A DNA stretch of 64,000 nt from a virus. This document shows positions 4,057-64,000 of the stretch, in pieces. How positions within the stretch are numbered: the first letter of the stretch is position 1; each line of letters opens with the position of its first letter. The position numbers and the translations under genes were made by a program. The DNA lies in the IMG/VR virus record IMGVR_UViG_3300045988_062804. The stretch is one strand, 5' to 3'. The notes under the pieces were generated by a model that saw only the letters and a program-made list of their open reading frames with translations, ran no database searches and was not told the origin of the DNA.

Positions 4057-5478
4057 TTACGCTTCTTTCATAATGAAGCTTCTGTATGGAGAGAATACTC
4101 CAACACCAGAATAACCCCAGTTGATTACCTTAGATGCAGCTGTAGTACTTGAAACGATACCAGAGCTTAGACCATCTAAACCACCAACACCAGGATACTT
4201 GTTAGTAATGAAGTCACCACCCTTTAATGTGAACATTTGGATAGCTGGTTCACCGCTAGTCTTATCAGCAGTAAGGTCAAGCATTAGACCAAAGCCCTTC
4301 TCAGAACCCCATTCACGAGAGAATGTTCTGTCCACCTTGAATGAAATAGTGTTACCACCTATTTCATAACTATTGAATGTAGCACCAACGTCTACATATC
4401 CGTTAGCCTTCTTAGACCATAGATAAGTACCACAAGTTTTGAATCTTGCAAGCCACTCTGATAGGCAGCTTTGGATGTCATTCCACATCTTCTCGTTACA
4501 GATGAATACATACTTATTACCAGTTGGGTTTTCACTCTTCTCATTCATCATAGCCATAGCTGTAGTGAACGCTTCTGGAGTAAGTTTATTGTAAACATAC
4601 TTAGATGCAAATCTTTCGATTTGTGGGATGATACCGTCACCAATGTAGATTGGACGACCAGTGTCAGGGTCAGAGATTGTCGGTTTACCATTCTTATCTA
4701 CGTTAGTCTTATTGAATAATAGACCTTGGTTACGAACTTCCAAGAAGTTTCTTAATAGATTCTTCTCAAGGGTATCCATCTTGTACATTGTTTCCTTAAC
4801 AGCACCATTGCCTTCACCCTTACCAATGCTGATAAATGTTTGCTCTAGTGGCTTGAATAGAGAAGTATAGCTGTCATCAACACGGTGTGTAGTGATGTAA
4901 CCTCTATGTCTCTCAATGTTAGATTGATACTTAACATAACCCTCTTCGTGTGCCTCAGGCATAGCGTTAGATTGGAATCTTGTAGTGTCACCAATCTGGC
5001 ATCCGTCTAGGTCTAGGATTGAAGAATAGTCGTTATCAATTAGTCTTACTTCAACAGTCCAATAATTATCTGCAACTCTTGTAGGTCTGGAGATAACTTG
5101 GCATTGCTGCATTGTTTTGTCAATCTTAAAAATGTCATACTTCTGGTAATAGTTCTCTTTGAAAGCCATTACGATGGTTGTACCACCTTCACCATTAGTT
5201 GCTGGAACATCTGCGAACTCAACCCTCTTGATGTAGTTGGTTTCAACTTCCCACTCGAAGTACATACTATCAATACTTCTATATTTGCTATTTGACTTAG
5301 AATCCATGTAGAAGATGTTTCTTAGAGATTCTGTCAAGTAAGAAGCAGTTAGGTTAGGGTAGAGTCTTGAAACTATACCAAGTCTAGTTGGTTTTGTGCC
5401 TAAGAACTTATAGAAATCTTCATAAGTTCTAGTTTCGCTCATTGTAGGGCGATTGGTTACGAAATTTGCTACTATCAT
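4057..5478 (-). CDS. putative major capsid protein
   Basis: 473 aa, directly downstream of a highly acidic scaffold-like gene. Size and position fit an HK97-fold MCP. No direct homology check was possible. Confidence 0.5.
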   Translation of the reverse strand: MIVANFVTNRPTMSETRTYEDFYKFLGTKPTRLGIVSRLYPNLTASYLTESLRNIFYMDSKSNSKYRSIDSMYFEWEVETNYIKRVEFADVPATNGEGGTTIVMAFKENYYQKYDIFKIDKTMQQCQVISRPTRVADNYWTVEVRLIDNDYSSILDLDGCQIGDTTRFQSNAMPEAHEEGYVKYQSNIERHRGYITTHRVDDSYTSLFKPLEQTFISIGKGEGNGAVKETMYKMDTLEKNLLRNFLEVRNQGLLFNKTNVDKNGKPTISDPDTGRPIYIGDGIIPQIERFASKYVYNKLTPEAFTTAMAMMNEKSENPTGNKYVFICNEKMWNDIQSCLSEWLARFKTCGTYLWSKKANGYVDVGATFNSYEIGGNTISFKVDRTFSREWGSEKGFGLMLDLTADKTSGEPAIQMFTLKGGDFITNKYPGVGGLDGLSSGIVSSTTAASKVINWGYSGVGVFSPYRSFIMKEA

Positions 5479-52900: not shown

Positions 52901-53088
52901 ATTATAATCAAGCTACACTCCATGCTGCCACTGGTAAGATATTAATGCTTCCAGGTTGGCACGGATACTTCTATTGGAACTATGGTACTAAAGAGTTGAA
53001 CTTTAGAGACGGTGATTATCATTTAGATGGGAAGCAATTACGAGATATGAACATTAGAGATAGGAATGATTGGTATTATATTACCTAA
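52897..53088 (+). CDS. hypothetical protein
   Basis: 63-aa ORF with an ATGA overlap with the preceding gene. Confidence 0.4.
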   Translation: MNYNQATLHAATGKILMLPGWHGYFYWNYGTKELNFRDGDYHLDGKQLRDMNIRDRNDWYYIT

Positions 53089-53118
53089 ATTTTATTAACA
53101 ATTAAACACAACACAATT

Positions 53119-53319
53119 ATGAGACATTTTATGATGGACGTTTGGATTTGGACAGAGGATAAACATTCTAAGCCATTAAAGACAATTAGATTTGAACAAG
53201 ACCATTTCCCTACCGAGAAGGAATGCTGGCATTGGTTTACTAAAGACGAAGATGTAGAAGTATATATGAAGAGTGGTATTTGTGTAAAATTCAATAATAT
53301 ACATGAGTATCAGAAATAA
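53119..53319 (+). CDS. hypothetical protein
   Basis: 66-aa ORF that ends just before a bidirectional terminator. Confidence 0.4.
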   Translation: MRHFMMDVWIWTEDKHSKPLKTIRFEQDHFPTEKECWHWFTKDEDVEVYMKSGICVKFNNIHEYQK

Positions 53320-53323
53320 ACAA

Positions 53324-53358
53324 AAAGGCGAGCCTAGCATTTAGCTAAGTTCGCCTTT
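53324..53358. terminator. bidirectional hairpin terminator between convergent genes
   Basis: Stem AAAGGCGA / TCGCCTTT with an inner CTAGC/GCTAG-type extension. An A-run lies on one side and a T-run on the other. It sits between the plus-strand gene ending at 53319 and the minus-strand gene ending at 53341. Confidence 0.6.
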
Positions 53359-53535
53359 AATTTTTACTGATAGTATTGAGTCTTCCCACTGTGTTGAGAA
53401 ATTCTTTAGAGCATATAATATATTCTCTCCGAGTCTATCTAAGGATGATTCTACCTCATTATATGGAAATGGGTCTATAACGCCATAGTCTATACCATAT
53501 CCTCTAGTTCCTATTACTGTTATAATGAATTGCAT
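53341..53535 (-). CDS. hypothetical protein
   Basis: 64-aa ORF, the last gene of the minus-strand small-gene block. Confidence 0.4.
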   Translation of the reverse strand: MQFIITVIGTRGYGIDYGVIDPFPYNEVESSLDRLGENILYALKNFSTQWEDSILSVKIKGELS

Positions 53536-53804
53536 CTTCCTACAAATACAAGAATCGGATAACCATCTTCATCTAATTCCTCATTATACATCTTGTTAGA
53601 TGTCAAGTTAGAGTAACATACTTCTAGTTCTACTGCTGGATATTTAAGATAGTCCCAGCCTGGATGTATATAAGCTCTTTCTTGTATAGCTCTACACTTT
53701 AGATTGTAGAGTGCAGGAGGCATTGGATTAGAATAATTAAGAACAGCTAAATTAAATAATGCTGCACCCTTCTCACCAGTTATAAATGTAAATTGATTAC
53801 TCAT
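53520..53804 (-). CDS. hypothetical protein
   Basis: 94-aa ORF with overlapping junctions. Confidence 0.45.
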   Translation of the reverse strand: MSNQFTFITGEKGAALFNLAVLNYSNPMPPALYNLKCRAIQERAYIHPGWDYLKYPAVELEVCYSNLTSNKMYNEELDEDGYPILVFVGRCNSL

Positions 53805-54009
53805 AATATAATATTTTACCGTAATAAGTTCCTTGTATGCTAATGCAGCAATCAGCTTGTCTTAAGAACATTTCATTATTCTTTGCCTCTACTGGAGCAA
53901 TTATATATGATACATGATGACCTCTCAGCTTACTAGCTATACTGTTATCTAAATCACCTTTCTCTATTAAAAGAACTTTGTCAGACCTATCATCCCTGAA
54001 TACTTTCAT
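53797..54009 (-). CDS. hypothetical protein
   Basis: 70-aa ORF. Confidence 0.4.
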   Translation of the reverse strand: MKVFRDDRSDKVLLIEKGDLDNSIASKLRGHHVSYIIAPVEAKNNEMFLRQADCCISIQGTYYGKILYYE

Positions 54010-54211
54010 CCTTAGTCTTTATATATAGTTGGCAATGGCACATGCCCTCTTCCATTTCTCTAAACTCTTTACACATACATACTGTATTATCGTCCCTTAC
54101 TAAGGAGCAAGGACAGTATCTTTTACCATACTTCTCCTTGTTCCTTTGTAAGCCTGCTAATACAGCTTCCTTTATTTCTTTATTGTCAGTAATTCTTACC
54201 ATATGTTTCAA
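53990..54211 (-). CDS. ferredoxin-thioredoxin-reductase catalytic-chain-like Cys-rich protein
   Basis: 73 aa. The spacing in RYCPCSLVRDDNTVCMCKEFREMEEGMCHCQLY matches the CPC...C.C...C.C.L pattern of FTR beta subunits. Confidence 0.45.
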   Translation of the reverse strand: MKHMVRITDNKEIKEAVLAGLQRNKEKYGKRYCPCSLVRDDNTVCMCKEFREMEEGMCHCQLYIKTKDESIQG

Positions 54212-54395
54212 TTTCTAACGCTCTTCTCTTGTCATTCTTTATCAATTCTGCCATCTGTTCATAAGCCTTGGCTAAGTGCATATGTAATAACTCCTCAGCA
54301 ATTTGAGGATTAGTGGGGACTGTATGAGAAATTTGTACCGTTCTGTCTCCTTCTCGAAGGACTATATAGCACATTCTATCCCTGTAGTATATCAT
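54186..54395 (-). CDS. hypothetical protein
   Basis: 69-aa ORF. Confidence 0.4.
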   Translation of the reverse strand: MIYYRDRMCYIVLREGDRTVQISHTVPTNPQIAEELLHMHLAKAYEQMAELIKNDKRRALEIETYGKNY

Positions 54396-54538
54396 TTATT
54401 CTTCAGCTTTTCTTCTAGCTCAGCTATCCTCTTCTTTAAAGAATCATTCTCTTTAGCTAGTTCTATGTTATCATTCTTAACCTGTTCTGCCTTCTTCATA
54501 AACTCTTCTACACCCTGCTCAAACAGAGTTAGATTCAT
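54392..54538 (-). CDS. hypothetical 48-aa coiled-coil protein (below the ORF-track cutoff)
   Basis: MNLTLFEQGVEEFMKKAEQVKNDNIELAKENDSLKKRIAELEEKLKNK. It fills the gap exactly: its ATG is 1 nt after the upstream stop, and it has an ATGA overlap with the downstream start. Confidence 0.45.
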   Translation of the reverse strand: MNLTLFEQGVEEFMKKAEQVKNDNIELAKENDSLKKRIAELEEKLKNK

Positions 54539-54539
54539 T

Positions 54540-54929
54540 TTAATTTGTCTGATTTCTGGAATCATTGTTAAACTTATCCTCTAGTTCATTAATAATTCTG
54601 TGAAGACTTGGAATCTTACTTGTAATAATACTATCCAAGTAATCTTTAATATCATCCAGAGTCATTGCATCAAATTCATCTTTAGATAAATTACGTGATT
54701 CAATTGTCTCTATAAATACATCAATAGCATCTTTAATAGCCTGTTTGTCTCTTAGTAGCTGTTCATGCGTTAGATGAACATTAGTAATCTTAGAGAACAA
54801 TGCTGGATACTTAGTAAATATCTCTTCCAATTCTTCATCACTAATTAGCTGTAATAGTTCTACAGCTTTATTATAGAGTACTTGTGCCTCTACAACATCA
54901 TACTTATCAAGTATAGCTTTTAATTGCAT
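54540..54929 (-). CDS. hypothetical protein
   Basis: 129-aa helical ORF. Confidence 0.5.
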   Translation of the reverse strand: MQLKAILDKYDVVEAQVLYNKAVELLQLISDEELEEIFTKYPALFSKITNVHLTHEQLLRDKQAIKDAIDVFIETIESRNLSKDEFDAMTLDDIKDYLDSIITSKIPSLHRIINELEDKFNNDSRNQTN

Positions 54930-55132
54930 AGATTTCTGTAAATATTAGATAGTGTTAGACAATGCTCAATATTAGCACCATTCTCTAGTCCTGATATGAT
55001 TTTATCTAATACTGTCAGTTTAGCCACCATAGCCTTACCCCATACAATAGAATCCTCTTTAGGTTCGCAAGAACCACACTGACATTTACAACCTTCTTCT
55101 GTTGTTACAATTTCTTTTACTTCTTTAGCCAT
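54920..55132 (-). CDS. hypothetical Cys-rich protein
   Basis: 70 aa with CKCQCGSCEP. It is the first gene of the minus-strand small-gene block. Confidence 0.45.
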   Translation of the reverse strand: MAKEVKEIVTTEEGCKCQCGSCEPKEDSIVWGKAMVAKLTVLDKIISGLENGANIEHCLTLSNIYRNLCN

Positions 55133-55184
55133 AATTCAAAATTTTATAATTAATACGTTATTTCTTCCTTATTGTTTGGTAATA

Positions 55185-55192
55185 CAAAGATA
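55185..55192 (-). promoter_or_regulatory. Bacteroidota-type -7 box (TATCTTTG)
   Basis: Minus-strand TATCTTTG (TAnnTTTG) lies 53 nt upstream of the ATG at 55132. Confidence 0.35.
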
Positions 55193-55344
55193 ATACATTC
55201 TAAATAGATTACCTAATGAGTTATACTTAAATATACTTAATATAGGTGAACTCAATTACTAGGTACTCCAAAAATACGCCCCTCCCCATTGAGGTGACCA
55301 GTCAATAAATATTTGAGTTTTATTGGTAGATAATTGTTAGATTC

Positions 55345-55360
55345 GCAATTCGCGAATTGC
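55345..55360. promoter_or_regulatory. perfect 16-bp palindrome GCAATTCGCGAATTGC in the divergent control region
   Basis: The sequence is self-complementary. It is the only such G+C-containing palindrome in the 450-bp ORF-free divergent region. Confidence 0.4.
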
Positions 55361-55497
55361 AAATTCTTTAGTCTGAGTTTGTTATGAGATATGTAGTAAG
55401 TGAAATGAGGTGTATTATGAAAGGGAGGGTAGTGTACTACAAAACGCCCCCTCTGGGTTACTCAAGAAAAATCAAAAAGTTTTAGAGAATTGTCCTG

Positions 55498-56413: not shown

Positions 56414-56935
56414 ATGGATACATTATTCAGCTTTGCAATCGAGTACAACAAGGCATTCTGTGCCAAGTTAGGTGTTGAGATTAAGACTGGCTTAGATGCC
56501 TTCGAGTCTAACGACACAGTTGTGCGGCGTTCCTTAGAGGACGCAATGTTTCACGTTGGTGACATCGTGGAAATACCTGCAAAGGATAGTGACCAATGGG
56601 TTTCGTGTCCCGTAGCTAAAGGAGGCAATGCAGTGGTTCGTCCAGTCTGCAAGGTCACCGCATCAGACGGGACAGTTACAGCACGCGAGCTGTTTTACGG
56701 TACACTCACCAAATCGGTGCAGAATCGTGAGACGAAGCAGACCGTAGCTGTTACTGGCACGATTGTCGACGAACTTCGCAACTGCATCATGCAGAAGGAA
56801 GGTTGGTTGAAATTGTGCGGCAAGAAGCTCAAGGTGACCAATGCAGTCGAGGTGCCAATCATCCGAAGAGGGTGGAATGGGCAGCCAGACAGAGCTACCA
56901 CAACCACAGTCTACAGCATAGACGTGGTTGCCTAA
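56414..56935 (+). CDS. hypothetical 173-aa protein, G+C-rich paralog A
   Basis: Clear paralog of 57567..58097 (shared VTASDGT, KSVQNRETKQ.V.VTG, VPIIRRG.NGQPDR). It is visibly more G+C-rich than the rest of the window, which also explains the spurious antisense ORFs here. Confidence 0.7.
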   Translation: MDTLFSFAIEYNKAFCAKLGVEIKTGLDAFESNDTVVRRSLEDAMFHVGDIVEIPAKDSDQWVSCPVAKGGNAVVRPVCKVTASDGTVTARELFYGTLTKSVQNRETKQTVAVTGTIVDELRNCIMQKEGWLKLCGKKLKVTNAVEVPIIRRGWNGQPDRATTTTVYSIDVVA

Positions 56936-57284: not shown

Positions 57285-57566
57285 AAAACTTTCTAATGCT
57301 ACATCCTTATACTAGTACTCCTCACATCCTCGATATGTATTTGAATAAAATAATATACTAAATACTTTTATGTATTGGTGTATTAGTTTATTCAAACTCA
57401 TTCAGGGTGAGTATAAATAAAATCTGGTTATGGTGCTAAATCTTAACGCACTACTCTTTGTGTTCTGGAGTATAAACTAAACGTGGTTAATCATTAGGAG
57501 AGCACTATATGTTGGCAGCCTGGAAAGACAGGCAATATTGTTAAACTCAAATAAATTTTAAAGATT

Positions 57567-58097
57567 ATGGCAAACGAAAGCCTTTTCGCTTTTGCAACTA
57601 ATTATGCAGAAGCTAGAGCTAAAGCTCTTGGTGGTAACATTGTTAAGGGTGCAGCAGCATTCGAAGTTGAAGACGCTCCAGTAAGACGTGACTTGTCGGA
57701 AACCCAGTTCAATATTGGGGATAAGATTGTCATTCCTGCTACTGCTGATTCAGAACAATGGATTTGTACTCCGCTGACTAGAGGACAGAACCCTGTTACT
57801 CGTGCATTGTGTGAAGTCACTGCATCTGACGGTACGAAGAGTGTTAAGGAATTGTTCCTCGGTACACTCATGAAGTCAGTTCAGAATCGTGAAACTAAAC
57901 AGAACGTCAGCGTTACTGGCTCAATTACCAATTACACTTCTAACTGTATTACTAAGAAAGAGGTATGGCAGAAGTTGTTCGGTAAGACTCTGGAAGTTGT
58001 TGGTGTTCAGATGGTTCCTATTATCCGAAGAGGATTCAACGGACAACCTGACAGACCGACTGAAACATCAGTACTGAAAATCAATGTCCTCGAATAG
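57567..58097 (+). CDS. hypothetical 176-aa protein, paralog B
   Basis: Paralog of 56414..56935. Its G+C content is intermediate. Confidence 0.7.
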   Translation: MANESLFAFATNYAEARAKALGGNIVKGAAAFEVEDAPVRRDLSETQFNIGDKIVIPATADSEQWICTPLTRGQNPVTRALCEVTASDGTKSVKELFLGTLMKSVQNRETKQNVSVTGSITNYTSNCITKKEVWQKLFGKTLEVVGVQMVPIIRRGFNGQPDRPTETSVLKINVLE

Positions 58098-58120
58098 ACC
58101 TCGAAGGACAAAGACAGTTA

Positions 58121-58211
58121 AAGCTTGGGTAATGGATAAGTATCGTATTAGGACTAATGATAATATATATCAAGTCTTAGATACGAGTTCATTACCCCAA
58201 GACAAAAGCTT
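58121..58211 (+). other. long imperfect hairpin (about 35 paired positions) downstream of paralog B
   Basis: AAGCTTGGGTAATG...TATCGTATTAGGACT / AGTCTTAGATACGA...CATTACCCCAAGACAAAAGCTT with an AT-rich apical loop at about 58156..58172. It overlaps the doubtful 63-aa ORF 58084..58275. Confidence 0.45.
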
Positions 58212-58289
58212 CTGGGCGCTAATAACTCCGCTCGACTTTTGCAACTGGGCAGTCCTGAAATGGATTCCTCTTTGAGGGACATTTGTAAC

Positions 58290-58372
58290 TGTACACACAT
58301 TTAGACACAAGCTCTAAAGAATTAAATTCCAAATATACCCAAATTAAGGGTTTGGTTCTAAATGTGTGTACA
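58290..58372. repeat. perfect 16-bp inverted repeat TGTACACACATTTAGA / TCTAAATGTGTGTACA separated by 51 nt
   Basis: The arms are at 58290..58305 and 58357..58372, in an ORF-free gap. Confidence 0.6.
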
Positions 58373-58504
58373 TATATACTTCAAATTATTGTAATGCAGC
58401 ATATTAGTGTATTAACACCAATATAGAGTCCAAAGCCTCTACAAATGCAGATGGTAGTAACTAATCGTAAAACTTCACACTTGGTGGGTAAAGTGTAATA
58501 CATT

Positions 58505-58999
58505 ATGAATTCATTTAGAATTTTGAACGCAGAAGGTAAAGCAATGACAATGGGTGAATTGGATAAAGAAGCAGCTGCTTTTTGGAATAAAGAAGTTCAT
58601 CCAAAGAATTATGCTAATCCATTTCCTGATGTAATTGTTAGTGAAGATGCATCCTTTAAAGAGAAAATGCAAGCTGAAATGGCAAACGCTAGAAATAGCT
58701 CTTTAAATTGGTATGAAATCATTGGATGGAATATTGCAAATCAAGGTGATTATACCTCAGGCTGGCAAAACGTAGTACATACAATGATGGCTGAATCTCT
58801 TGGAAATTGTTTATTAAACATCAATCAAGGAGAACCAATTAAGATAGCTCATTTCATAAAGCATGATAACAATCAACTGCATCTTGAAGATAGTTACGAG
58901 GCAAGAATATATGCAACTCTTAACTATTTCAAGCCATTTGTTGATTTAATCAATCATTGGATGTCTAAAGGATATACACCTGAGAAAATCGAAGGATAA
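58505..58999 (+). CDS. hypothetical protein
   Basis: 164-aa ORF. The TAACTAATCG motif lies 38 nt upstream. Confidence 0.55.
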   Translation: MNSFRILNAEGKAMTMGELDKEAAAFWNKEVHPKNYANPFPDVIVSEDASFKEKMQAEMANARNSSLNWYEIIGWNIANQGDYTSGWQNVVHTMMAESLGNCLLNINQGEPIKIAHFIKHDNNQLHLEDSYEARIYATLNYFKPFVDLINHWMSKGYTPEKIEG

Positions 59000-59160
59000 T
59001 GAAGTACAGAATTGAGTTTAAATATCGTTACGGTAAAGACTATGTATACTGTAACGAATATCATGAAGATGAAGGGTTTGTACAACCACTTAATTCAAAT
59101 GGTAAACCAATGTGCACAATTGCAAAAACTAATATAATATGTATTAGAGAATGCAAATAA
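58999..59160 (+). CDS. hypothetical 53-aa Cys-containing protein (below the ORF-track cutoff)
   Basis: MKYRIEFKYRYGKDYVYCNEYHEDEGFVQPLNSNGKPMCTIAKTNIICIRECK. Its ATG overlaps the preceding stop (TAATG). Confidence 0.4.
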   Translation: MKYRIEFKYRYGKDYVYCNEYHEDEGFVQPLNSNGKPMCTIAKTNIICIRECK

Positions 59161-59238
59161 TTATACAGAACGCCTATCGCTGTAAAGGATGGGCAAATTT
59201 TAACTAATCGTATAAACCTATAATTGGAGGATTAAATT

Positions 59239-59625
59239 ATGAAACTATTTTACTTGCCTGATACTAAGGCAATCGTTGCAAAGTACAACAACAAGTTTGT
59301 CTCTTTACCTAATGGAGAAGAGATAGACAAACCTGCTAAGCTCATCCCTTGTCAACCATTCTTAAAGGAGTCTAAAACCTCTAAATGGAATGACATACCA
59401 GATGACGATGATGCGTTCTATGCTCATCTTAACAAATACAATGACCTAAAGACATCTGATAGACGTCCTCGTGTCATTAAAGTTCATAAAGTTAGGATGG
59501 CTGTAATATATACTACTAATGAAGTGGGAGAACCTTGGTTCCAGCTATCTGGCAATGTTCCTCACTATGTATTAAATGGAATTGCTAACGTTCTAAAAGA
59601 AGAATATTATGATTCTATTAAGTAG
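59239..59625 (+). CDS. hypothetical protein
   Basis: 128-aa ORF. The TAACTAATCG motif is at 59201..59210. Confidence 0.55.
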   Translation: MKLFYLPDTKAIVAKYNNKFVSLPNGEEIDKPAKLIPCQPFLKESKTSKWNDIPDDDDAFYAHLNKYNDLKTSDRRPRVIKVHKVRMAVIYTTNEVGEPWFQLSGNVPHYVLNGIANVLKEEYYDSIK

Positions 59626-59722
59626 TGGTATATTCATCTCTGATGGCATGGCTTCGGTCATAGCCATCATTATTGGAGTACTAACTTGTGTATTCTGGTA
59701 TAAATGCAGTAAAGAAAAGTAA
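59609..59722 (+). CDS. hypothetical 37-aa single-pass membrane peptide
   Basis: MILLSSGIFISDGMASVIAIIIGVLTCVFWYKCSKEK. It overlaps the preceding gene end by 17 nt and has a hydrophobic core with a basic tail. Confidence 0.35.
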   Translation: MILLSSGIFISDGMASVIAIIIGVLTCVFWYKCSKEK

Positions 59723-59747
59723 AATAACAATAAAATAACTAATCTAC

Positions 59748-59870
59748 ATGAAAGTAATCAAAACTAATATTAAGGCTGAAACTGTAGAAATTAATCCTAG
59801 AGAAGCGGAAGCTCTCAGAGACACATTCCAGGACAATAGACGTACTTATAACGATAATATACGCAAGTAA
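59748..59870 (+). CDS. hypothetical 40-aa protein
   Basis: MKVIKTNIKAETVEINPREAEALRDTFQDNRRTYNDNIRK. The motif variant TAACTAATCT lies directly upstream. Confidence 0.35.
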   Translation: MKVIKTNIKAETVEINPREAEALRDTFQDNRRTYNDNIRK

Positions 59871-59920
59871 GAATATGTATCACCTATGTGTCTGGAACAT
59901 TTGAATAAACCTACGTAATG

Positions 59921-59950
59921 GGTGCTAGTTTAATAGCTAGCACCGTTTAT
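59921..59950 (+). terminator. hairpin (terminator, or 5' element of the downstream ncRNA)
   Basis: Perfect 8-bp stem GGTGCTAG / CTAGCACC with an 8-nt loop, followed by GTTTAT. Confidence 0.45.
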
Positions 59951-60730
59951 CCATAATTAAGGCAGGTTCTCCGCGAGGGGAATAAGTGAAAGCACAAGTG
60001 CAATCATCTAAAAGTTTAGTGATTGATTACTGTGAGTCGAGTAGCCCAAGACCTGTGCTCACTTGGTATAAGAAGAAGCGTTTAATAGTGTACATAAAAG
60101 CGTGGATACTCAGAGCACCAAGTATGGTTGTAGGTCTCAAAAGTCTAAAGTTTATATAATGACTTTAAATCGTGAGCTTAACACCAGGTCATGTTTGAAC
60201 ATTAAGCTTTAAACATTTAGTCAGCTTATCTGACATTTTAAAAAACTCAATATAAAAGATATTGACTAATGTGTGTAACTAGTTGTCTTTAACCGCACGC
60301 CGAAGTGTTTCTACCGTAGTAGCAACAATCTCTACTAATGATGTAGATTATAGACAATGAACCACACTAGCTCTAAGAGTATTAGTTTCAGTATTTCCAA
60401 GACGTTGAGGACGCCAGTTTCTTATCTTTCTGTATATCTAATTATGTACCCGAACTACTGCTGATCCGGTTTTAGTGAATATCAGAGTAATACTAATGAA
60501 TCAGTACTGATTACGCTAATGTAATTTCATGGCTTATTAAGCTTACTAATTATTTATAGCCAAATGATAAGTTTTAGGTGTAAAATGCAATCTTCTGCAT
60601 AATTATTCATTTTAGATGGATATAATTCCATACCCCCCCCGTGAAGGGGTCGGCATCATGACTAAGCCTTTACGTGGCGATGCTATAAGTAACCTATTAA
60701 TAGGTGAAACTAATTGGTCATATTGTTTAA
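59950..60730 (+). ncRNA. candidate large structured non-coding RNA (class unknown)
   Basis: There is no ORF of 60 aa or more on either strand across about 880 bp (59871..60748) in an otherwise tightly packed genome. G+C is locally raised. Many local stems are present, including a GNRA-capped hairpin TCTCC-GCGA-GGGGA (about 59968..59981). Others are CCCC-GTGAA-GGGG (about 60636..60648), GCATC...GATGC, GTCAG-CTTAT-CTGAC and AATCAG-TA-CTGATT. The strand is inferred from the flanking genes only. Confidence 0.35.
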
Positions 60731-60748
60731 TTTAATAACTAATCGACA

Positions 60749-61042
60749 ATGAAAATTGAAAAGAACAAATTAGTGAATCGTGCTCAAGTGTTGAACCAAG
60801 ACATTCAGTTAGGTATTATTGCCTATTCTGTAGCTGAAATGGCATCTATAATCGAACAGACAGATGCTAAGCTCCACAAGGGTGAAATCACCGAAGAGCA
60901 GCACAAAACTATAGTTGATGATTGTACTGAATACATCAAGTCAGCTAAAGAGATGTGTGACGAATCCAAAATGGATTGGAGTGTATGTATCTTGTTATCA
61001 CGTACTAATCTTGATAAGTATGTGGAAAGCAAGATTGACTAA
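60749..61042 (+). CDS. hypothetical protein
   Basis: 97-aa helical ORF. The TAACTAATCG motif is at 60736..60745. Confidence 0.55.
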   Translation: MKIEKNKLVNRAQVLNQDIQLGIIAYSVAEMASIIEQTDAKLHKGEITEEQHKTIVDDCTEYIKSAKEMCDESKMDWSVCILLSRTNLDKYVESKID

Positions 61043-61172
61043 GGCATTGTTCCTACTAATGGTAGGATACTTAGGCTGGCAATGTACTAGAGCATCCTTA
61101 TGGATTCCTCTGGTATTATGTGTGTTATTAGGCATTTTTATTATTCAACTTAAAAATAAGGATTTAGCATGA
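61020..61172 (+). CDS. hypothetical 50-aa membrane protein
   Basis: MWKARLTKALFLLMVGYLGWQCTRASLWIPLVLCVLLGIFIIQLKNKDLA. It has two hydrophobic segments. The track ORF 60915..61172 is trimmed here to the ATG at 61020. Confidence 0.4.
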   Translation: MWKARLTKALFLLMVGYLGWQCTRASLWIPLVLCVLLGIFIIQLKNKDLA

Positions 61173-61609
61173 AAAAGATTGACGCAATTTTGAATGGAAC
61201 TAAAGAACAGTACCCATCATTAATAAGCAAGTTATCTAATATTCTCGAACCGTTTGCCCTGCTTGCAGTAGGCAAAGCACCCGTTTACGTTGGACGTGTA
61301 GTTGAAGAACTCGGAGTAAAGCAATGCAAGGACTGCGGAGCTTTCATATTTAACATTGATGGCAATGATGTTGCCCATGTTGATGTTAAAAGAATGGAAG
61401 CATCAGTATTCGGTGGTGAGACATTCTCAATCTCTACAGAAGATGCCGAGTCGGTAACTAATGTACTGGCTGCATTTGAGAACCATAAAGAAGAGGATGA
61501 TGAGAATCCTGTTAAGGAAATTCTTGAGAATATGCCTAAGGAACTCAAATCTCTTCTTGGAGCAGCTATCATGGTATCTAAACTCCGTAGAAAGGGAGAA
61601 GACAACTAA
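61169..61609 (+). CDS. hypothetical protein
   Basis: 146-aa ORF with an ATGA overlap with the preceding gene. Confidence 0.55.
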   Translation: MKKIDAILNGTKEQYPSLISKLSNILEPFALLAVGKAPVYVGRVVEELGVKQCKDCGAFIFNIDGNDVAHVDVKRMEASVFGGETFSISTEDAESVTNVLAAFENHKEEDDENPVKEILENMPKELKSLLGAAIMVSKLRRKGEDN

Positions 61610-61692
61610 AGAAGGTTTTTGAAGACAAATATCAAGGGGTTAGTCCACTGTGAAGTGAGCTAGCTCCGCCAACTTTTAAAGCTAATAATGAA

Positions 61693-61893
61693 ATGGATAT
61701 ACTGAAGCAATTAGAAGAAGGCAAACCTTTCTCTGGTAGAAATGGTGCTTTTACTGGAAGAGTTGAACCGCAATCAATAAGTGGAGATACTCTGAATGTC
61801 ATATGTGATAAGGATGGCACAAGATGGCATGAGAATTGGGAATTACAGCATGTTATTTGGGCATTTGAATGTGGAGATTATTACTTCTTATGA
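61693..61893 (+). CDS. hypothetical protein
   Basis: 66-aa ORF. Confidence 0.45.
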   Translation: MDILKQLEEGKPFSGRNGAFTGRVEPQSISGDTLNVICDKDGTRWHENWELQHVIWAFECGDYYFL

Positions 61894-62291
61894 TTAAGTG
61901 TGATATATCTAAATGCCATGCGAGTTGTTGTTATAACGCTCCATTGCCTAAGAAATACATATTTGCATTAAAGAATAGGATTGTTACTCCAGTTAAGGAG
62001 ATTCTCGTTATTGATGATGAGAATATGAAAGGTGAGGTAATGTGTTATCCAATCACAGACCATAACCCTGATAAGAACAAATGTCCATTCTTAACTGAGA
62101 ATTGTAGATGTAATATTTATGATAGAAGACCACCAATATGTAAGAAGTTTGGTAATGGTACAGAACCATTATTAACTTGCTCATTCTTAGTTCCAGAAGA
62201 ACAAAGAGAGTCTGTATTGGCTGGTTATAAGTCTGCTATTAATAACCTAACATCTCCAACTGCTTGGGAACTTGCTAAAAAGTATAAGTAA
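61890..62291 (+). CDS. YkgJ-like cysteine-cluster (zinc/iron-chelating) protein
   Basis: Contains KCHASCCYNAP...CPFLTENCRCNIYDRRPPICKKFG, which fits the CxxxCC ... C.F....C.IY..RP..C..F pattern. The ATG at 61890 overlaps the upstream stop (ATGA). Confidence 0.5.
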   Translation: MIKCDISKCHASCCYNAPLPKKYIFALKNRIVTPVKEILVIDDENMKGEVMCYPITDHNPDKNKCPFLTENCRCNIYDRRPPICKKFGNGTEPLLTCSFLVPEEQRESVLAGYKSAINNLTSPTAWELAKKYK

Positions 62292-62292
62292 T

Positions 62293-62652
62293 ATGCCAAA
62301 GGATTATGCGCTAAGAAAGTTACATTCTAAGGAGAAGATTATCTTCTGTGGATGTGATGCTATAAGTGGTTTATTAATGCATTACCTACTTGATGAATTG
62401 TTTGGCAGAGGTGAGTATAAGATACTTCATCACTATGATTTACGATTACAACAAGAATGGGAATGGACTATTGATGAGCCAATACCTGACAAAGATATTA
62501 TTAAGGAATGGTTCTTCTGTGAACCTGAGAGAATAATAACTACTTGTTGGGATTACGAGAGAACTCTCAAAGCTGTAGAAGATGCGCAGATTACAAATGT
62601 GCGTATCTATGAGTTTTGTAAGTATAAACACATAACTGATTTACCATTCTAA
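62293..62652 (+). CDS. hypothetical protein
   Basis: The ATG at 62293 (MPKDYALRKL...) is preferred over the TTG start used by the track. Confidence 0.5.
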   Translation: MPKDYALRKLHSKEKIIFCGCDAISGLLMHYLLDELFGRGEYKILHHYDLRLQQEWEWTIDEPIPDKDIIKEWFFCEPERIITTCWDYERTLKAVEDAQITNVRIYEFCKYKHITDLPF

Positions 62653-62692
62653 TGGTGAATACTCATAGTGCAGGAGTACAACTGCACTAACT

Positions 62693-63192
62693 GGGCTTGT
62701 ATGGTTTTGACAGGCGATTACGAGTTAGTAAGACGTGTAGAGTTGGCACCAACTCTTTAATAATGATGCACAATTTTAAGTGGAAACACTGAAGTAAGAA
62801 TGGCAGCCTAAGCTGCTGGCTTATCAGTATTTATATTGATTAAGTCGGGTTAATTGGAGAGACCTAGAAACAGAAGAGGATTGACAAACGTCATTAACCG
62901 AACGCTCTAAGAGTTAGTAAGCCGAAATCTCCACTACCTAGCTATGGGTTACAAATAGACGTTCTCCAACGTAAATGGAGTGGTGGAGCGACCGTTCGGT
63001 CAAGCCCAGTTTGGTAGTTTGTGAACAACTAAGTCGTAGCCTTACGAGGAGACGTAATTGGTGAATTAACACTCAGCTTCTTAGTAAAACTATCTACATG
63101 CTGAACTCAACAGCTGATGTAATAAAATAGAGACACACGTAATCTTATTAATGAGAGTTGTTTGGACGGCAGTTCGATTCTGCCCAAGTCCA
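62693..63192 (+). ncRNA. ssrA: phage-encoded tmRNA (ssrA-like), about 500 nt
   Basis: The 5' GGGCTTG (62693..62699) pairs with the 3' CAAGTCC (63185..63191), giving a 7-bp acceptor stem with a G3:U70 wobble (the alanine identity element), then discriminator A. The T-arm GGCAG-TTCGATT-CTGCC (63168..63184) is preceded by GGAC as in tmRNAs. The 5' GGGCTTGTATGGTTTTGACAGGCG parallels the bacterial GGGGCUGAUUCUGGAUUCGACGGG. A long-range 7-bp helix joins GATTACG (62716..62722) to CGTAATC (63138..63144) and is P2-like. The candidate tag frame is GGA AAC ACT GAA GTA AGA ATG GCA GCC TAA (62782..62811), with the stop in the loop of the GCAGC-CTAA-GCTGC hairpin. CCA is not encoded. Confidence 0.72.
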
Positions 63193-63219
63193 CATTGTAT
63201 AACTAATCGACAAAGAATT

Positions 63220-64000
63220 ATGGAAAATTTTGATTTTGCAGAACAAATTAAAAATGTTGCTACAGAGAGTGTTTATGTACTCACTGAGAAGAACAAGGAA
63301 GTAGTCAAAGCTTTACGATTGCTGCCTGGCAACAGACCTACAAAAGTTAAGAAAGTAGAATCCTTAGTGGAAGCATACAAACGAGGTGTATACATTCCTC
63401 CAATATTAGTAGCTTTACCTTACAGATTTGTAACTGAAGGTAATCATAGATTGGCTGCAGCTTTGGAGTGTATTGAAAGAGGTATTCCATTTACTCTTAG
63501 AGTATATATGTATAGGGATGATGATTCATTAGGAACAGCTCGCCTAATCAATAATACTCAAGATAGATGGAAGGCTAATGATAGATTAGACTCATATGTC
63601 TATGAGAGAAAAGAAGCATATGTTCGTCTTAAAGAGTTTATGGATTTGTATCCTTCAATCTTTAGGTTAGCTAACACATACTCAATCCAGGCTGCTTTGT
63701 GTGTACTGGCACTTGGGAGAACTAGACAATCTATGCGAAATGCTTTCAACTCTGGTAAGTTAGTAATAACAGAAGAAGCTATCTCTCATGGTAAAGAATT
63801 GATGGAAGAACTTATACTGATTTCAGAGATATTGGATACCACTTCAGTATTTGTGAGAGACCATTCAACTGCGTGGGACAAAGCTAGAAACAGGTTAGGT
63901 ATATCATTTAACCAGTTTATAGTACGGCTTCGTAAGAAGGCTGACTCATGGGAAGAACCTAAGGATAGTGTTGAAGCATGGTTTACTATGTACCTTAAAA
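63220..64000 (+). CDS. ParB-like nuclease domain protein (partial, runs off right edge)
   Basis: ATG at 63220, open to the window end (not in the track). MENFDFAEQIKNV...PPILVALPYRFVTEGNHRLAAALE carries the ParB/Srx-type G.HR..A motif. The TAACTAATCG motif is at 63200..63209. Confidence 0.55.
   Translation, partial: MENFDFAEQIKNVATESVYVLTEKNKEVVKALRLLPGNRPTKVKKVESLVEAYKRGVYIPPILVALPYRFVTEGNHRLAAALECIERGIPFTLRVYMYRDDDSLGTARLINNTQDRWKANDRLDSYVYERKEAYVRLKEFMDLYPSIFRLANTYSIQAALCVLALGRTRQSMRNAFNSGKLVITEEAISHGKELMEELILISEILDTTSVFVRDHSTAWDKARNRLGISFNQFIVRLRKKADSWEEPKDSVEAWFTMYLK

Follow-up and report, generated by a model that had tools for sequence, protein, structure and literature searches.

A candidate plus-strand RNA island of four separately conserved modules in a large crAss-like gut phage

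What occupies an interval of about 880 bp without a recognizable gene in a phage whose genes are otherwise tightly packed? The crAss-like phages are among the most abundant human gut viruses, and their reference genomes contain kilobase-sized gaps without annotation. We studied the interval 59871-60748 of a 64,000-nucleotide stretch of viral DNA (IMG/VR record IMGVR_UViG_3300045988_062804), hereafter the window. A first-pass annotation, based on the letters of the window, had described the interval as ORF-free and hairpin-dense, and proposed either one large structured RNA or an origin or packaging region. In the present study, we compared the interval with about 200 related loci. We found that it consists of a gene remnant and four separately conserved modules, predicted to fold as RNA of the plus strand, and not of a single unit. 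The reading that we favor, with a probability of about 0.7, is a plus-strand noncoding RNA island of four independent modules in a small-gene block of a large crAss-like gut phage, whose transcript would be processed to stable, trans-acting RNAs.

The interval indeed contains no ORF of 60 or more amino acids on either strand, and the plus-strand genes on both sides abut or overlap, as the annotation had stated. ORFs of 35-57 amino acids are present in the interval, and the longest (57 amino acids, GTG start, 59986-60159) is broken in 34 of the 34 other variants of element A, described below. Reading through TAG, TGA, or TAA uncovered no long ORF in the interval. A tblastx search with 60136-60640 showed no more protein-level conservation than nucleotide identity explains, and the indels among homologues are not multiples of three and thus break the frame. 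No array of conserved short reading frames was found, and the lack of any conserved reading frame is what is expected of a conserved structured noncoding RNA.

The composition of the interval had been called less AT-rich than that of its flanks, but the GC content is 0.33-0.39 inside and 0.31-0.39 outside. The hairpins that had been pointed out individually are real; hairpin density as a property of the single sequence is weak, with modest minimum free energy z-scores (-1.7 on the plus strand and -2.7 on the minus strand for the whole region with 20 shuffles, -1.7 for 60136-60612, and -2.8 for element A alone). The case for structure comes from comparison between loci and not from folding energies.

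The first 38 nt of the interval are a gene remnant, and the remainder is made of the four separable modules. An internal deletion in a ParB-like gene (phrog_5931 type) has left a 5' remnant at 59748-59870 (plus strand, 40 codons and a new stop) and a 3' remnant at 59871-59908 (plus strand), which holds the last 12 codons (RICITYVSGTFE) and the ancestral TAA (59906-59908). The sequence of the 5' remnant is identical to the N-terminus of a 269-amino-acid ORF in the related loci L006, L007, L008, and L012. In L006 this ORF ends with ...KVRICITYVSGTFE*, and BLASTN aligned 59865-60135 of the window to L006 7214-7484. The deletion junction is CGCAAGTA|AGAATATG, with the microhomology AAGTA. The ParB-like or phrog_5931 matches of the upstream genes came from PHROGs only; sequence searches of the same genes against Pfam, NCBIfam, and PDB gave no match, and no ParA is present.

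Element A (59909-60135, 227 nt, plus strand) follows the ancestral stop codon directly. From its aligned variants, it is predicted to be a closed three-domain RNA with paired 5' and 3' ends. The ends are paired by the closing helix P1 (59909-59915/60129-60135), which encloses P2 (59921-59930/59935-59944), P3 (59962-59966/60052-60056), a GNRA hairpin (59968-59981), a variable hairpin (60002-60024), P3d (60027-60044), the long irregular hairpin P4 (60057-60116) with a palindromic UGUACA loop (60089-60094), and P5 (60117-60128). The GNRA hairpin (stem 59968-59972/59977-59981, GCGA loop 59973-59976) had already been noticed in the single sequence, and relatives keep GCGA or GUGA. Among 35 distinct variants, the edges of conservation are sharp and coincide with the ends of P1. 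Of the cells of the 57 predicted pairs, 99.3% are paired, and double changes occur at 7 pairs compared with 2.5±0.9 in shuffled alignments (0/500), although this control overstates significance when sequences are related, and the covariation support for A comes from few independent events since most of its pairs never vary. The variable hairpin is maintained in nine sequence forms, the divergent copy L106 has changed a G-U pair of P4 to A-U, and seven G-U pairs are invariant. P2 and the UGUACA/CGUACG loop are palindromes, and the RNA may oligomerize via this covarying loop.

A search with covariance model R1 found A in a single copy per genome, without a paralogue elsewhere in the 64-kb window. 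The element is confined to one phage clade and is accessory within it, being absent from about 17 of the 38 contigs that carry element C (about 40% of the clade) and internally deleted in L009, L076, L084, and L057. It was absent from the bacterial and archaeal genomes searched and from a more distant relative, MT835492.1 (60% capsid identity). Five further loci from 17-mer scans of IMG/VR (L030, L046, L047, L051, and L054) were chance matches in unrelated coding DNA. A proposed paralogy between A and B, based on common UAAUGGGU and AAGUAU motifs, was dropped, as covariance model R1 misses B. No antisense target of the conserved loops of A was found within the 64 kb, which argues only against a base-pairing small RNA directed at the phage itself.

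The next module, B1 (about 60142-60235, plus strand), appears from its homologues to be a short module of hairpins of about 95-110 nt. The homologues are 91-94% identical in L076 and L090 and about 77% identical in L019, L060, L067, and others. Among them, helices have changed in a compensatory manner, AGCUUAA/UUAAGCU versus ACCUAG/UUAGGU and GUUUA/UAAAC versus GCCC/GGGC. The last B1 hairpin, GUCAG-CUUAU-CUGAC (about 60222-60236), abuts the A-tract of the following element.

Element D, present in the window in a long form (60240-60588, plus strand), is a broadly conserved Crassvirales RNA motif. It begins with an invariant A6 tract (60240-60245), followed by the hairpin S1 (60246-60251/60404-60409), which carries a 141-nt loop insert (60253-60393). 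The remaining parts are P0 (60403-60406/60584-60587), S2 (60411-60415/60577-60581), a conserved U-rich internal loop, AGUUU/UUUUA (60416-60420/60572-60576), S3 (60421-60426/60566-60571), and a variable apical domain (60427-60565), all on the plus strand. The alignment predicts a long bent stem (P0, S2, the internal loop, S3, and a variable tip) that follows the A6 tract and the competing hairpin S1; S1 and P0 have three nucleotides in common, and the sequences are compatible with both. P0 is 100% paired and two of its pairs fully covary (CG 27, UA 10, and UG 1; AU 25, GC 12, and GU 1). Four of the six pairs of S3 covary, and one pair of S2 occurs as G-U in 20 sequences and as A-U in 18. The loop insert has no exact match in IMG/VR and was taken for a window-specific insertion; this was refuted by cr272_1 and several IMG/VR loci, which have the same long-form insert with base sequences in common.

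D is far more widespread than A. More than 120 IMG/VR contigs contain a 19-mer of its core, the full-length element is represented by 109 distinct variants, and covariance model R3 matched the window once, at 60394-60588 (55 bits, E 2e-9). D was found in at least 13 reference Crassvirales genomes, among both Suoliviridae and Steigviridae, and no annotated feature lies beneath any match; in IMG/VR and the reference genomes it is always located within unannotated gaps. D is common to at least two Crassvirales families, unannotated in every reference genome checked, and an RNA motif absent from Rfam 15.

Element C (60609-60705, plus strand) comprises four covarying hairpins: H1 (60616-60620/60627-60631), H2 (60633-60650), H3 (60652-60657/60679-60684), which encloses the pairing GCC/GGC (60666-60668/60676-60678), and H4 (60692-60705). 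H2 is the C8/GGGG hairpin seen at first pass (60633-60640/60646-60649, loop GUGAA), and its conserved form is ACCCC-GUGAN-GGGGU. In the alignment of 25 variants, 97.9% of cells are paired, and double changes occur at 8 of 21 pairs compared with 4.8±1.0 in shuffles (0/500), a control with the same bias toward significance for related sequences. The G-U pairs of C are on the plus strand only. Covariance model R2 found C once in the window, with no paralogue elsewhere in it; a 22-mer of C occurs in 38 IMG/VR contigs, and cr272_1 has a weak C-like match (25 bits, E 7e-4). C always precedes the same gene, and D is often just 5' of an ORF, positions that would also fit cis-regulatory leaders.

Compensatory changes are thus present among the collected homologues of A, B1, C, and D, and they exceed the controls for A, C, and D, with the caveat that the sequences are related and A varies little. 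The asymmetry between strands is of the kind expected of RNA. G-U pairs are found on the plus strand, where transitions from G-C or A-U to G-U are abundant in the helices, and the A·C combinations that would correspond to them hardly occur. The interval matched no Rfam 15 family, including GOLLD, ROOL, group I and II introns, RNase P, 6S, riboswitches, and known ribozyme families, and the Rfam scans recognized no known catalytic core of a self-cleaving ribozyme in it. At E≤10, 59500-61000 gave just chance-level snoRNA and miRNA matches of 20 bits or less, and L006 7200-8020 likewise gave only chance-level matches. Scans of seven relatives revealed no family for A, B, C, or D, and that of cr272_1 revealed nothing above chance except its hammerhead. 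We did not find these elements described in the literature on crAss noncoding RNA, RAGATH-34, or crAssphage RNA motifs.

The surroundings of the interval are rich in RNA genes. At the gathering threshold, the only Rfam 15 match in the whole window is a phage tmRNA gene outside the interval (62693-63195, plus strand, RF00023, 93.3 bits, E 5e-35), which ARAGORN did not call; the scan found no known ribozyme in the 64 kb. In relatives of the window, RAGATH-34 lies about 1.6 kb beyond the tmRNA. In cr53_1, L221, L136, L161, and cr272_1, D lies within about 0.3-1.5 kb of RAGATH-14, RAGATH-6, RAGATH-7, Hatchet, or a RAGATH-1 hammerhead, and tRNAs too are found within about 1 kb of D in relatives. 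Comparable gaps in other crAss-like phages thus place D beside Hatchet or hammerhead ribozymes, RAGATH-6/7/14/34, tRNAs, or tmRNA. RAGATH stands for RNAs Associated with Genes Associated with Twister and Hammerhead ribozymes. We regard the interval as a RAGATH-type noncoding RNA island with new motifs; the location is typical for D itself, and for A and C only via their linkage to D and RAGATH-34. D shares the genomic niche of RAGATH arrays, and the modules are likewise compact, covarying, and phage-borne. However, A, B1, C, and D match no curated RAGATH or ribozyme model, and the interval has no recognizable self-cleavage core.

The part of the first-pass proposal that concerns noncoding, conserved plus-strand structure in a locus rich in RNA genes has held, and the part that concerns one ornate RNA of about 880 nt has not. 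If A, B1, D, and C were domains of one large RNA of about 830 nt like GOLLD (RF01998) or ROOL (RF03087), contiguity on one strand with linkers of just 6-20 nt would be natural, as would a location in a phage near tmRNA; GOLLD and ROOL are phage-encoded, noncoding, multi-helix RNAs, often adjoin tRNA or tmRNA genes, and have GNRA tetraloops, and the self-complementary loop of A could mediate oligomerization. A weak long-range pairing between 59872-59887 and 60700-60715 is also predicted. However, no covariance-model match to either family was obtained, the modules are 95-350 nt long compared with about 580-800 nt, each is closed by its own terminal helix, and no covarying helix between modules was seen. 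The modules are gained and lost independently, in place of one conserved architecture: L009 and L010 have A and C only, L004 and about 17 further contigs have B and C but lack A, and numerous phages devoid of both A and C carry D. In L015, A has moved upstream of a 128-amino-acid gene, away from D and C. We therefore hold a single large RNA to be highly improbable. An action of the modules in cis, as mRNA elements and not as RNA genes, we judge less improbable but still unlikely. A would then be a 3'-UTR stabilizer or processing signal of the upstream ParB-like gene, and D and C would be structured 5' leaders (riboswitch-like or protein-binding) controlling the downstream gene, with the mutually exclusive pairing of S1 and P0, both compatible with the sequence, as the switch. 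The stop codon of the upstream gene is in the same position relative to A, which starts immediately after it, in all four contexts known; C invariably lies directly 5' of a homologue of the 97-amino-acid gene; and an ATG frequently follows the end of D at a distance of 14-180 nt. However, the four contexts of A are four different genes, three ParB-like and one without a family match, and deletion or truncation of the gene has left A intact. Its about 80 invariant nucleotides beside genes only about 75% identical would be atypical of a UTR stabilizer. The ORFs that follow D, 0-410 nt away, encode 88 distinct proteins that fall into many unrelated clusters, and in cr53_1, L221, and L136 the next features past D are RNAs (RAGATH, Hatchet), not genes.

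The hairpins might instead act as DNA, namely as an origin of replication, a site for packaging, hairpin promoters used by the virion RNA polymerase as in phage N4, or a centromere-like parS site for the adjacent ParB-like protein. A site 3' of a ParB-like gene resembles the layout of parB-parS operons, A contains the palindromes of P2 and the P4 loop, and a crAss-like virion RNA polymerase transcribes single-stranded templates in vitro (bioRxiv 10.1101/2020.03.07.982082). However, the sequence of A is the same whether it follows one of three dissimilar ParB-like alleles or a gene lacking any ParB-like family match, and its pairing is RNA-like; on the template strand, the numerous G-U pairs of the helices, and the transitions from G-C to G-U, would appear as A·C mismatches. 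The stems vary freely in sequence and length and keep pairing, which is the opposite of what is expected of a DNA site recognized by a protein. The search for direct repeats and iterons in the interval gave chance two-copy matches only, and the GC skew does not change across it. About 40% of clade members lack A, which therefore cannot serve as an essential origin or packaging site. The origin or packaging alternative of the annotation is thus not supported, and we give action as DNA a very small probability. That the interval is decaying, functionless sequence, conserved by recent ancestry and recombination among close phages, we find scarcely credible. The wreck at 59748-59908 is a true gene wreck, and A has a narrow clade and several internally deleted copies; yet D is kept across families with major capsid proteins only 22-24% identical to that of this phage, the ends of A are invariant where the neighboring genes fall to 74-87% identity, and substitutions preferentially keep pairing.

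Under the RNA-island reading, the island would be transcribed within a long early or middle transcript, from which host RNases that process tRNA and tmRNA, and resident ribozymes where present, would cut discrete, stable structured RNAs. In the window, which has no known ribozyme, the processing would depend on the host RNases. The released RNAs would then act in trans during host takeover, with their invariant loops as protein-binding or tertiary-contact surfaces and with helices that need only pair. A precedent is phi14:2, a crAss-like phage whose early region contains two long intergenic stretches (g004-g005 and g005-g006) that give rise to noncoding transcripts in the sense direction that are abundant from the earliest time point and unusually stable (bioRxiv 10.1101/2020.03.07.982082). 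Expression was demonstrated in phi14:2 and is presumed for our island, and structure, which was not reported for phi14:2, is predicted here. The RNAs of the island are probably cut from an early transcript and serve as stable RNAs.

A bolder and rather doubtful proposal is that D represents an uncatalogued, family-spanning class of Crassvirales RNA with a defined activity, and that the gaps are operons of processed functional RNAs of which A and C are lineage-specific members. D might form, in cis, a triple helix that clamps the A-tract and shields processed early RNAs from exonucleases. It resembles the ENE of KSHV PAN and MALAT1 in having a stem broken by a U-rich loop (between S2 and S3) and an invariant A6 in cis, but its U tracts are shorter (3-4 U) and its A-tract is 5', not 3'; that a triple helix forms is conjecture, and we know of no bacterial or phage ENE. 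D might also be a new RNA that cleaves itself or responds to a ligand, switching between the S1 and P0 pairings, or it might guide or scaffold a phage protein, the role that RAGATH-18 proved to have for IS607 TnpB (PMC11061315).

The study shows a crAss-like gap tightly packed with conserved RNA structures. As the modules and their boundaries are defined and D lies beside ribozymes and RAGATH RNAs, the island offers concrete, testable RNAs for the role of ribozyme-rich phage arrays in infection.

Scans for conventional transcription signals were at chance level. A terminator scan gave two sites with a stem and a U-run compared with 2.5 expected, neither inside the interval, and a scan for TTGACA/TATAAT-type promoters gave 20 promoter-like sites compared with 23 expected; no Bacteroidetes-type TAnnTTTG box occurs on the plus strand of 58000-64000. 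Two related boxes follow C on the plus strand, AAACTAATTGGTCA (60707-60720) and ATAACTAATCGACAA (60735-60749), the latter running into the ATG of the 97-amino-acid gene (60749-61042) and invariant in the C alignment. A promoter-like TAACTAATCG box thus stands 3' of C, before the next gene. As had been noted at first pass, ATAACTAATCGACAA recurs exactly at 63199-63213, 4 nt past the tmRNA. The exact sequence TAACTAATC has five copies in the 64 kb, all on the plus strand between 58458 and 63208 and each 12-47 nt before an ATG, and these boxes may be promoters or transcription start sites.

The interval at 59871-60748, which the first-pass annotation had proposed as a candidate large ornate noncoding RNA of the GOLLD/ROOL kind, is a mosaic. 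Relatives were fetched from IMG/VR by the flanking 128-aa and 146-aa proteins, and later scans added about 200 loci. By BLASTN among the first relatives, only 59904-60135 and 60613/60637-60748 were conserved and collinear, and the spacing between the flanking genes varied between about 1.25 and 2.6 kb. ORFs reaching 60 aa were absent from both strands, even with any stop codon reassigned. The GCGA hairpin and the C8/GGGG hairpin were located where they had been placed, and the ATAACTAATCGACAA box is exact at 60735 and 63199, the second copy being 4 nt after the tmRNA. The lower AT content that had been claimed was not borne out by the composition. Folding was modestly better than that of shuffled sequence (z-scores: whole region, -1.7 on the + strand and -2.7 on the - strand; element A, -2.8; middle part, -1.7). 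The original observation was partly confirmed: the interpretation as structured RNA stood, whereas that as one large GOLLD/ROOL-like RNA did not.

The 5' portion of the interval is the remnant of a gene. The 40-aa ORF at 59748-59870 extends to a 269-aa protein in four relatives (L006, L007, L008, and L012), and the end of that protein, ...RICITYVSGTFE*, is the exact sequence at 59871-59908. As the two ends of the homologue match 59748-59870 and 59871-59908, the window has lost 644 nt from within the gene, and the junction shows AAGTA microhomology. The 269-aa protein is assigned to phrog_5931 and gave a weak ParB-like match; the same position can instead be occupied by a 258-aa allele that is clearly ParB-like (phrog_12305, 1e-10). 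An ORF beyond the tmRNA, with its start at 63220, is likewise clearly ParB-like and runs off the window. Pfam, NCBIfam, and PDB sequence searches of the upstream genes gave no matches.

Element A (59909-60135, + strand) is single-copy, and 35 distinct variants were collected. It is preceded by four different genes, three ParB-like and one without a family match. In a hand-curated structure of 57 pairs, 99.3% of the cells were paired, and seven pairs showed changes on both sides, versus 2.5±0.9 in shuffled controls (0/500) and at most three in slid controls. The hairpin at 60002-60024 occurs in nine sequence or length forms and is kept in each. In the divergent L048 locus, the central domain is replaced, and helix P3 is kept via three compensatory pairs. 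L106, which was found independently of the sequence of A, has four substitutions in the otherwise invariant 3' domain, three of which keep or improve pairing (two G-U to A-U and one U-A to U-G). A 57-aa ORF within A is open in the window only. The palindrome in the apical loop of the long hairpin changes from UGUACA to CGUACG in six variants; judged from the sequences, this switch would fit a GUAC loop with a closing pair or a dimer formed by kissing loops. A was absent from the bacterial genomes and from the more distant relative in which it was sought, and about 17 of the 38 clade contigs with element C are without it; thus, A is an accessory, clade-restricted RNA. Internally deleted copies, in which the central domain or some of the 3' end is missing, were seen at L009, L076, L084, L057, L042, and L045. 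The domains most often retained are P2 on the 5' side and P4/P5 on the 3' side, and these copies suggest ongoing decay or modular reduction.

Module B1 lies at about 60142-60235 (+ strand), and its homologues, 77-94% identical, show compensatory changes in two helices. In many relatives, the gap between D and C holds an extra module of 80-203 nt, element B, which the window lacks (e.g., L001 7770-7972, L107 1649-1728, and L102 1524-1633; core NNCC-AUAAUGGGUACGCCC...GUGGCACAGGAAGG-NN). Its closing stem covaries in four forms (GACC/GGUC, CACC/GGUG, CAUC/GAUG, and GACU/AGUC). B contains a GNRA hairpin, sometimes directly follows a tRNA-like 3' end, and has no Rfam match; it is a further structured RNA candidate.

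Element D (60240-60588, + strand) is the most significant of the modules because of its breadth. It is single-copy, and the copy in the window scores 55 bits against its covariance model (R3). Nearly all relatives share three collinear islands, 60238-60252, 60394-60427, and 60567-60589, at variable spacing. The 19-nt core, CCAAGAYRTTGAGGRCRCC, has at least 120 matches in IMG/VR, fewer than 10 of which are estimated to be chance hits (L198 looks like one). We extracted 109 distinct full-length versions of 78-350 nt, with the consensus UAAAAAACUCAAUAACUUYCCAAGAYRUUGAGGRCRCCAGUUUCUU, a variable stem-loop, and then AAGUUUUAGGYGUAAAAYRC. Among 38 short forms, helix P0 (YRUU/AAYR) is 100% paired (CG27/UA10/UG1 and AU25/GC12/GU1), helix S2 alternates between G-U and A-U, four of the six pairs of helix S3 covary, and the covariation score is 0.37 versus 0.157±0.011 for shuffled sequences. 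The sequences are also compatible with hairpin S1 (CUCAAU/RUUGAG), which overlaps P0 by three nucleotides; S1 and P0 could be alternative pairings, or S1 could be shortened once P0 forms. An invariant U-rich internal loop between S2 and S3, together with an invariant A6 tract upstream, invites comparison with an ENE-like triple helix, which D might form.

At least 13 reference Crassvirales genomes, belonging to Steigviridae and to three subfamilies of Suoliviridae, contain D; the gaps that hold it measure 0.6-2.2 kb, and in none was a feature annotated under the match. Through a 59-nt match, D was located in cr272_1, a Suoliviridae phage from the pig gut, where it lies in an unannotated gap of 1.5 kb, in the same long form as in the window, together with a RAGATH-1 hammerhead ribozyme (73 bits) and a weak match to C. 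Unannotated reference gaps of 1.1-2.2 kb with D include those in cr272_1 (L122 2777-4289), cr53_1 (L237 817-3056), and cr128_1 (L238 2222-3330); the records do not annotate the known RNAs there, namely the hammerhead in cr272_1 and RAGATH-14 and two Hatchet ribozymes in cr53_1. A small recurrent hairpin, GGCAGCCUGGAAAGACAGGC and variants (YCUGGAAWAGACAGR), is present at about 57515-57540 of the window, upstream of the gene at 57567, and in four copies in the cr272_1 gap (L122 3510-3530, 3625-3645, 3745-3765, and 3865-3885). It often lies immediately 5' of the A-tract of D (L171/L221).

Element C (60609-60705, + strand) consists of four hairpins, including the C8/GGGG one. It is single-copy and occurs in 38 IMG/VR contigs, a wider spread than that of A; 97.9% of the cells are paired, and 8 of 21 pairs show double changes versus 4.8±1.0 in shuffled controls. 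Two related boxes follow C, and the second, ATAACTAATCGACAA, extends into the ATG of a 97-aa gene. The exact TAACTAATC(G) occurs five times in the 64 kb, always on the + strand and confined to 58.4-63.2 kb (58458, 59201, 59736, 60736, and 63200); each copy precedes a start codon by 12-47 nt. A TAACTAATCG box lies 4 nt past the tmRNA, before the ParB-like ORF. No Bacteroidetes-type TAnnTTTG (-7) box was found on the + strand at 58000-64000. The TAACTAATC box may serve as a class-specific element of a promoter or start site.

The surroundings are rich in known RNAs. The neighbors of D in cr53_1, L221, L136, and L161 include RAGATH-14, RAGATH-6, RAGATH-7, one or two Hatchet ribozymes, and tRNAs (RAGATH, RNAs Associated with Genes Associated with Twister and Hammerhead ribozymes). 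In close relatives, about 1.6 kb separates the tmRNA from a downstream RAGATH-34 (RF03103, 72-80 bits; L001 12280-12380, L012 11863-11973, and L015 6316-6417); the homologous position is just past the 3' end of the window. Among known kinds of RNA, the modules come closest to the RAGATH-type arrays in phage-like DNA. Hatchet, from such arrays, is a ribozyme. Some array members are ribozymes, some are guide-RNA scaffolds, such as RAGATH-18 (PMC11061315), and others are orphans. A, B1, C, and D belong to no Rfam 15 family, and we file them as new RNAs of the RAGATH-array kind.

We observed RNA structure on the + strand, modularity, the breadth of D, and co-location with ribozymes, tRNAs, and tmRNA. 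The island would most likely be transcribed together with early or middle + strand genes, and the transcript would be processed into discrete stable RNAs acting in trans. A precedent is the crAss-like phage phi14:2, in which long early intergenic regions give abundant, unusually stable noncoding RNAs (bioRxiv 10.1101/2020.03.07.982082). The accessory status of A, its place in the host-takeover region, and its invariant loops suggest that it may bind a protein or serve as a decoy; no phage antisense target of its conserved loops was found in the 64 kb.

The main rival to trans-acting RNAs is that the modules are cis-acting UTR or leader elements. An upstream stop codon lies directly before the closing helix of A in all four contexts. 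The ORFs downstream of D encode 88 different proteins from many unrelated clusters; therefore, D is not the leader of one gene family. The lesser rivals are a single giant RNA, sites that act at the DNA level, and junk. Against a single giant RNA, A is upstream, not downstream, of the 128-aa gene in L015; the conservation of A is bounded exactly by the two strands of the closing helix ACCUACG/UGUAGGU, and the sequence flanking it on both sides is unrelated between contexts. Against action at the DNA level, G-U pairs are plentiful on the + strand in the helices of A, and the mirror A·C cells number three. Against junk, the first ~55 nt and the last ~80 nt of A are invariant, although the neighboring genes go down to 74-87% nucleotide identity.

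In the - strand block at 1-49469 are genes for a portal (phrog_6547), a large terminase (phrog_6681), and a tail protein, along with very large ORFs. At 4057-5478, a 473-aa ORF is distantly homologous (22-24% identity) to the protein annotated as 'major head protein' in reference Crassvirales. A + strand block that begins at about 55.5 kb holds small abutting genes and the tmRNA (62693-63195, + strand, 93 bits). The tmRNA was found by Rfam and missed by ARAGORN; since it spans 503 nt versus the 374-position model, it has large insertions. No cultured or annotated close relative was present in the phage collection searched; the close relatives come from the human gut, as contigs either about 93-109 kb or about 176-190 kb long, and these size classes could be two genome sizes or assembly concatemers. 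Eight small overlapping - strand ORFs (53085-55132) sit between + strand genes, directly followed by an ORF-poor stretch (55133-55490) across which the direction of transcription changes; a comparable switch is found a few hundred bases upstream of D in cr10_1 and cr128_1. A GC-rich patch at 56450-56900 (0.51-0.53 versus ~0.35 around it) lies within the ORF at 56414-56935 (173 aa), which has no PHROG or Pfam match, is overlapped by antisense ORFs of 70-98 aa, and may be a recently acquired or unusual gene.
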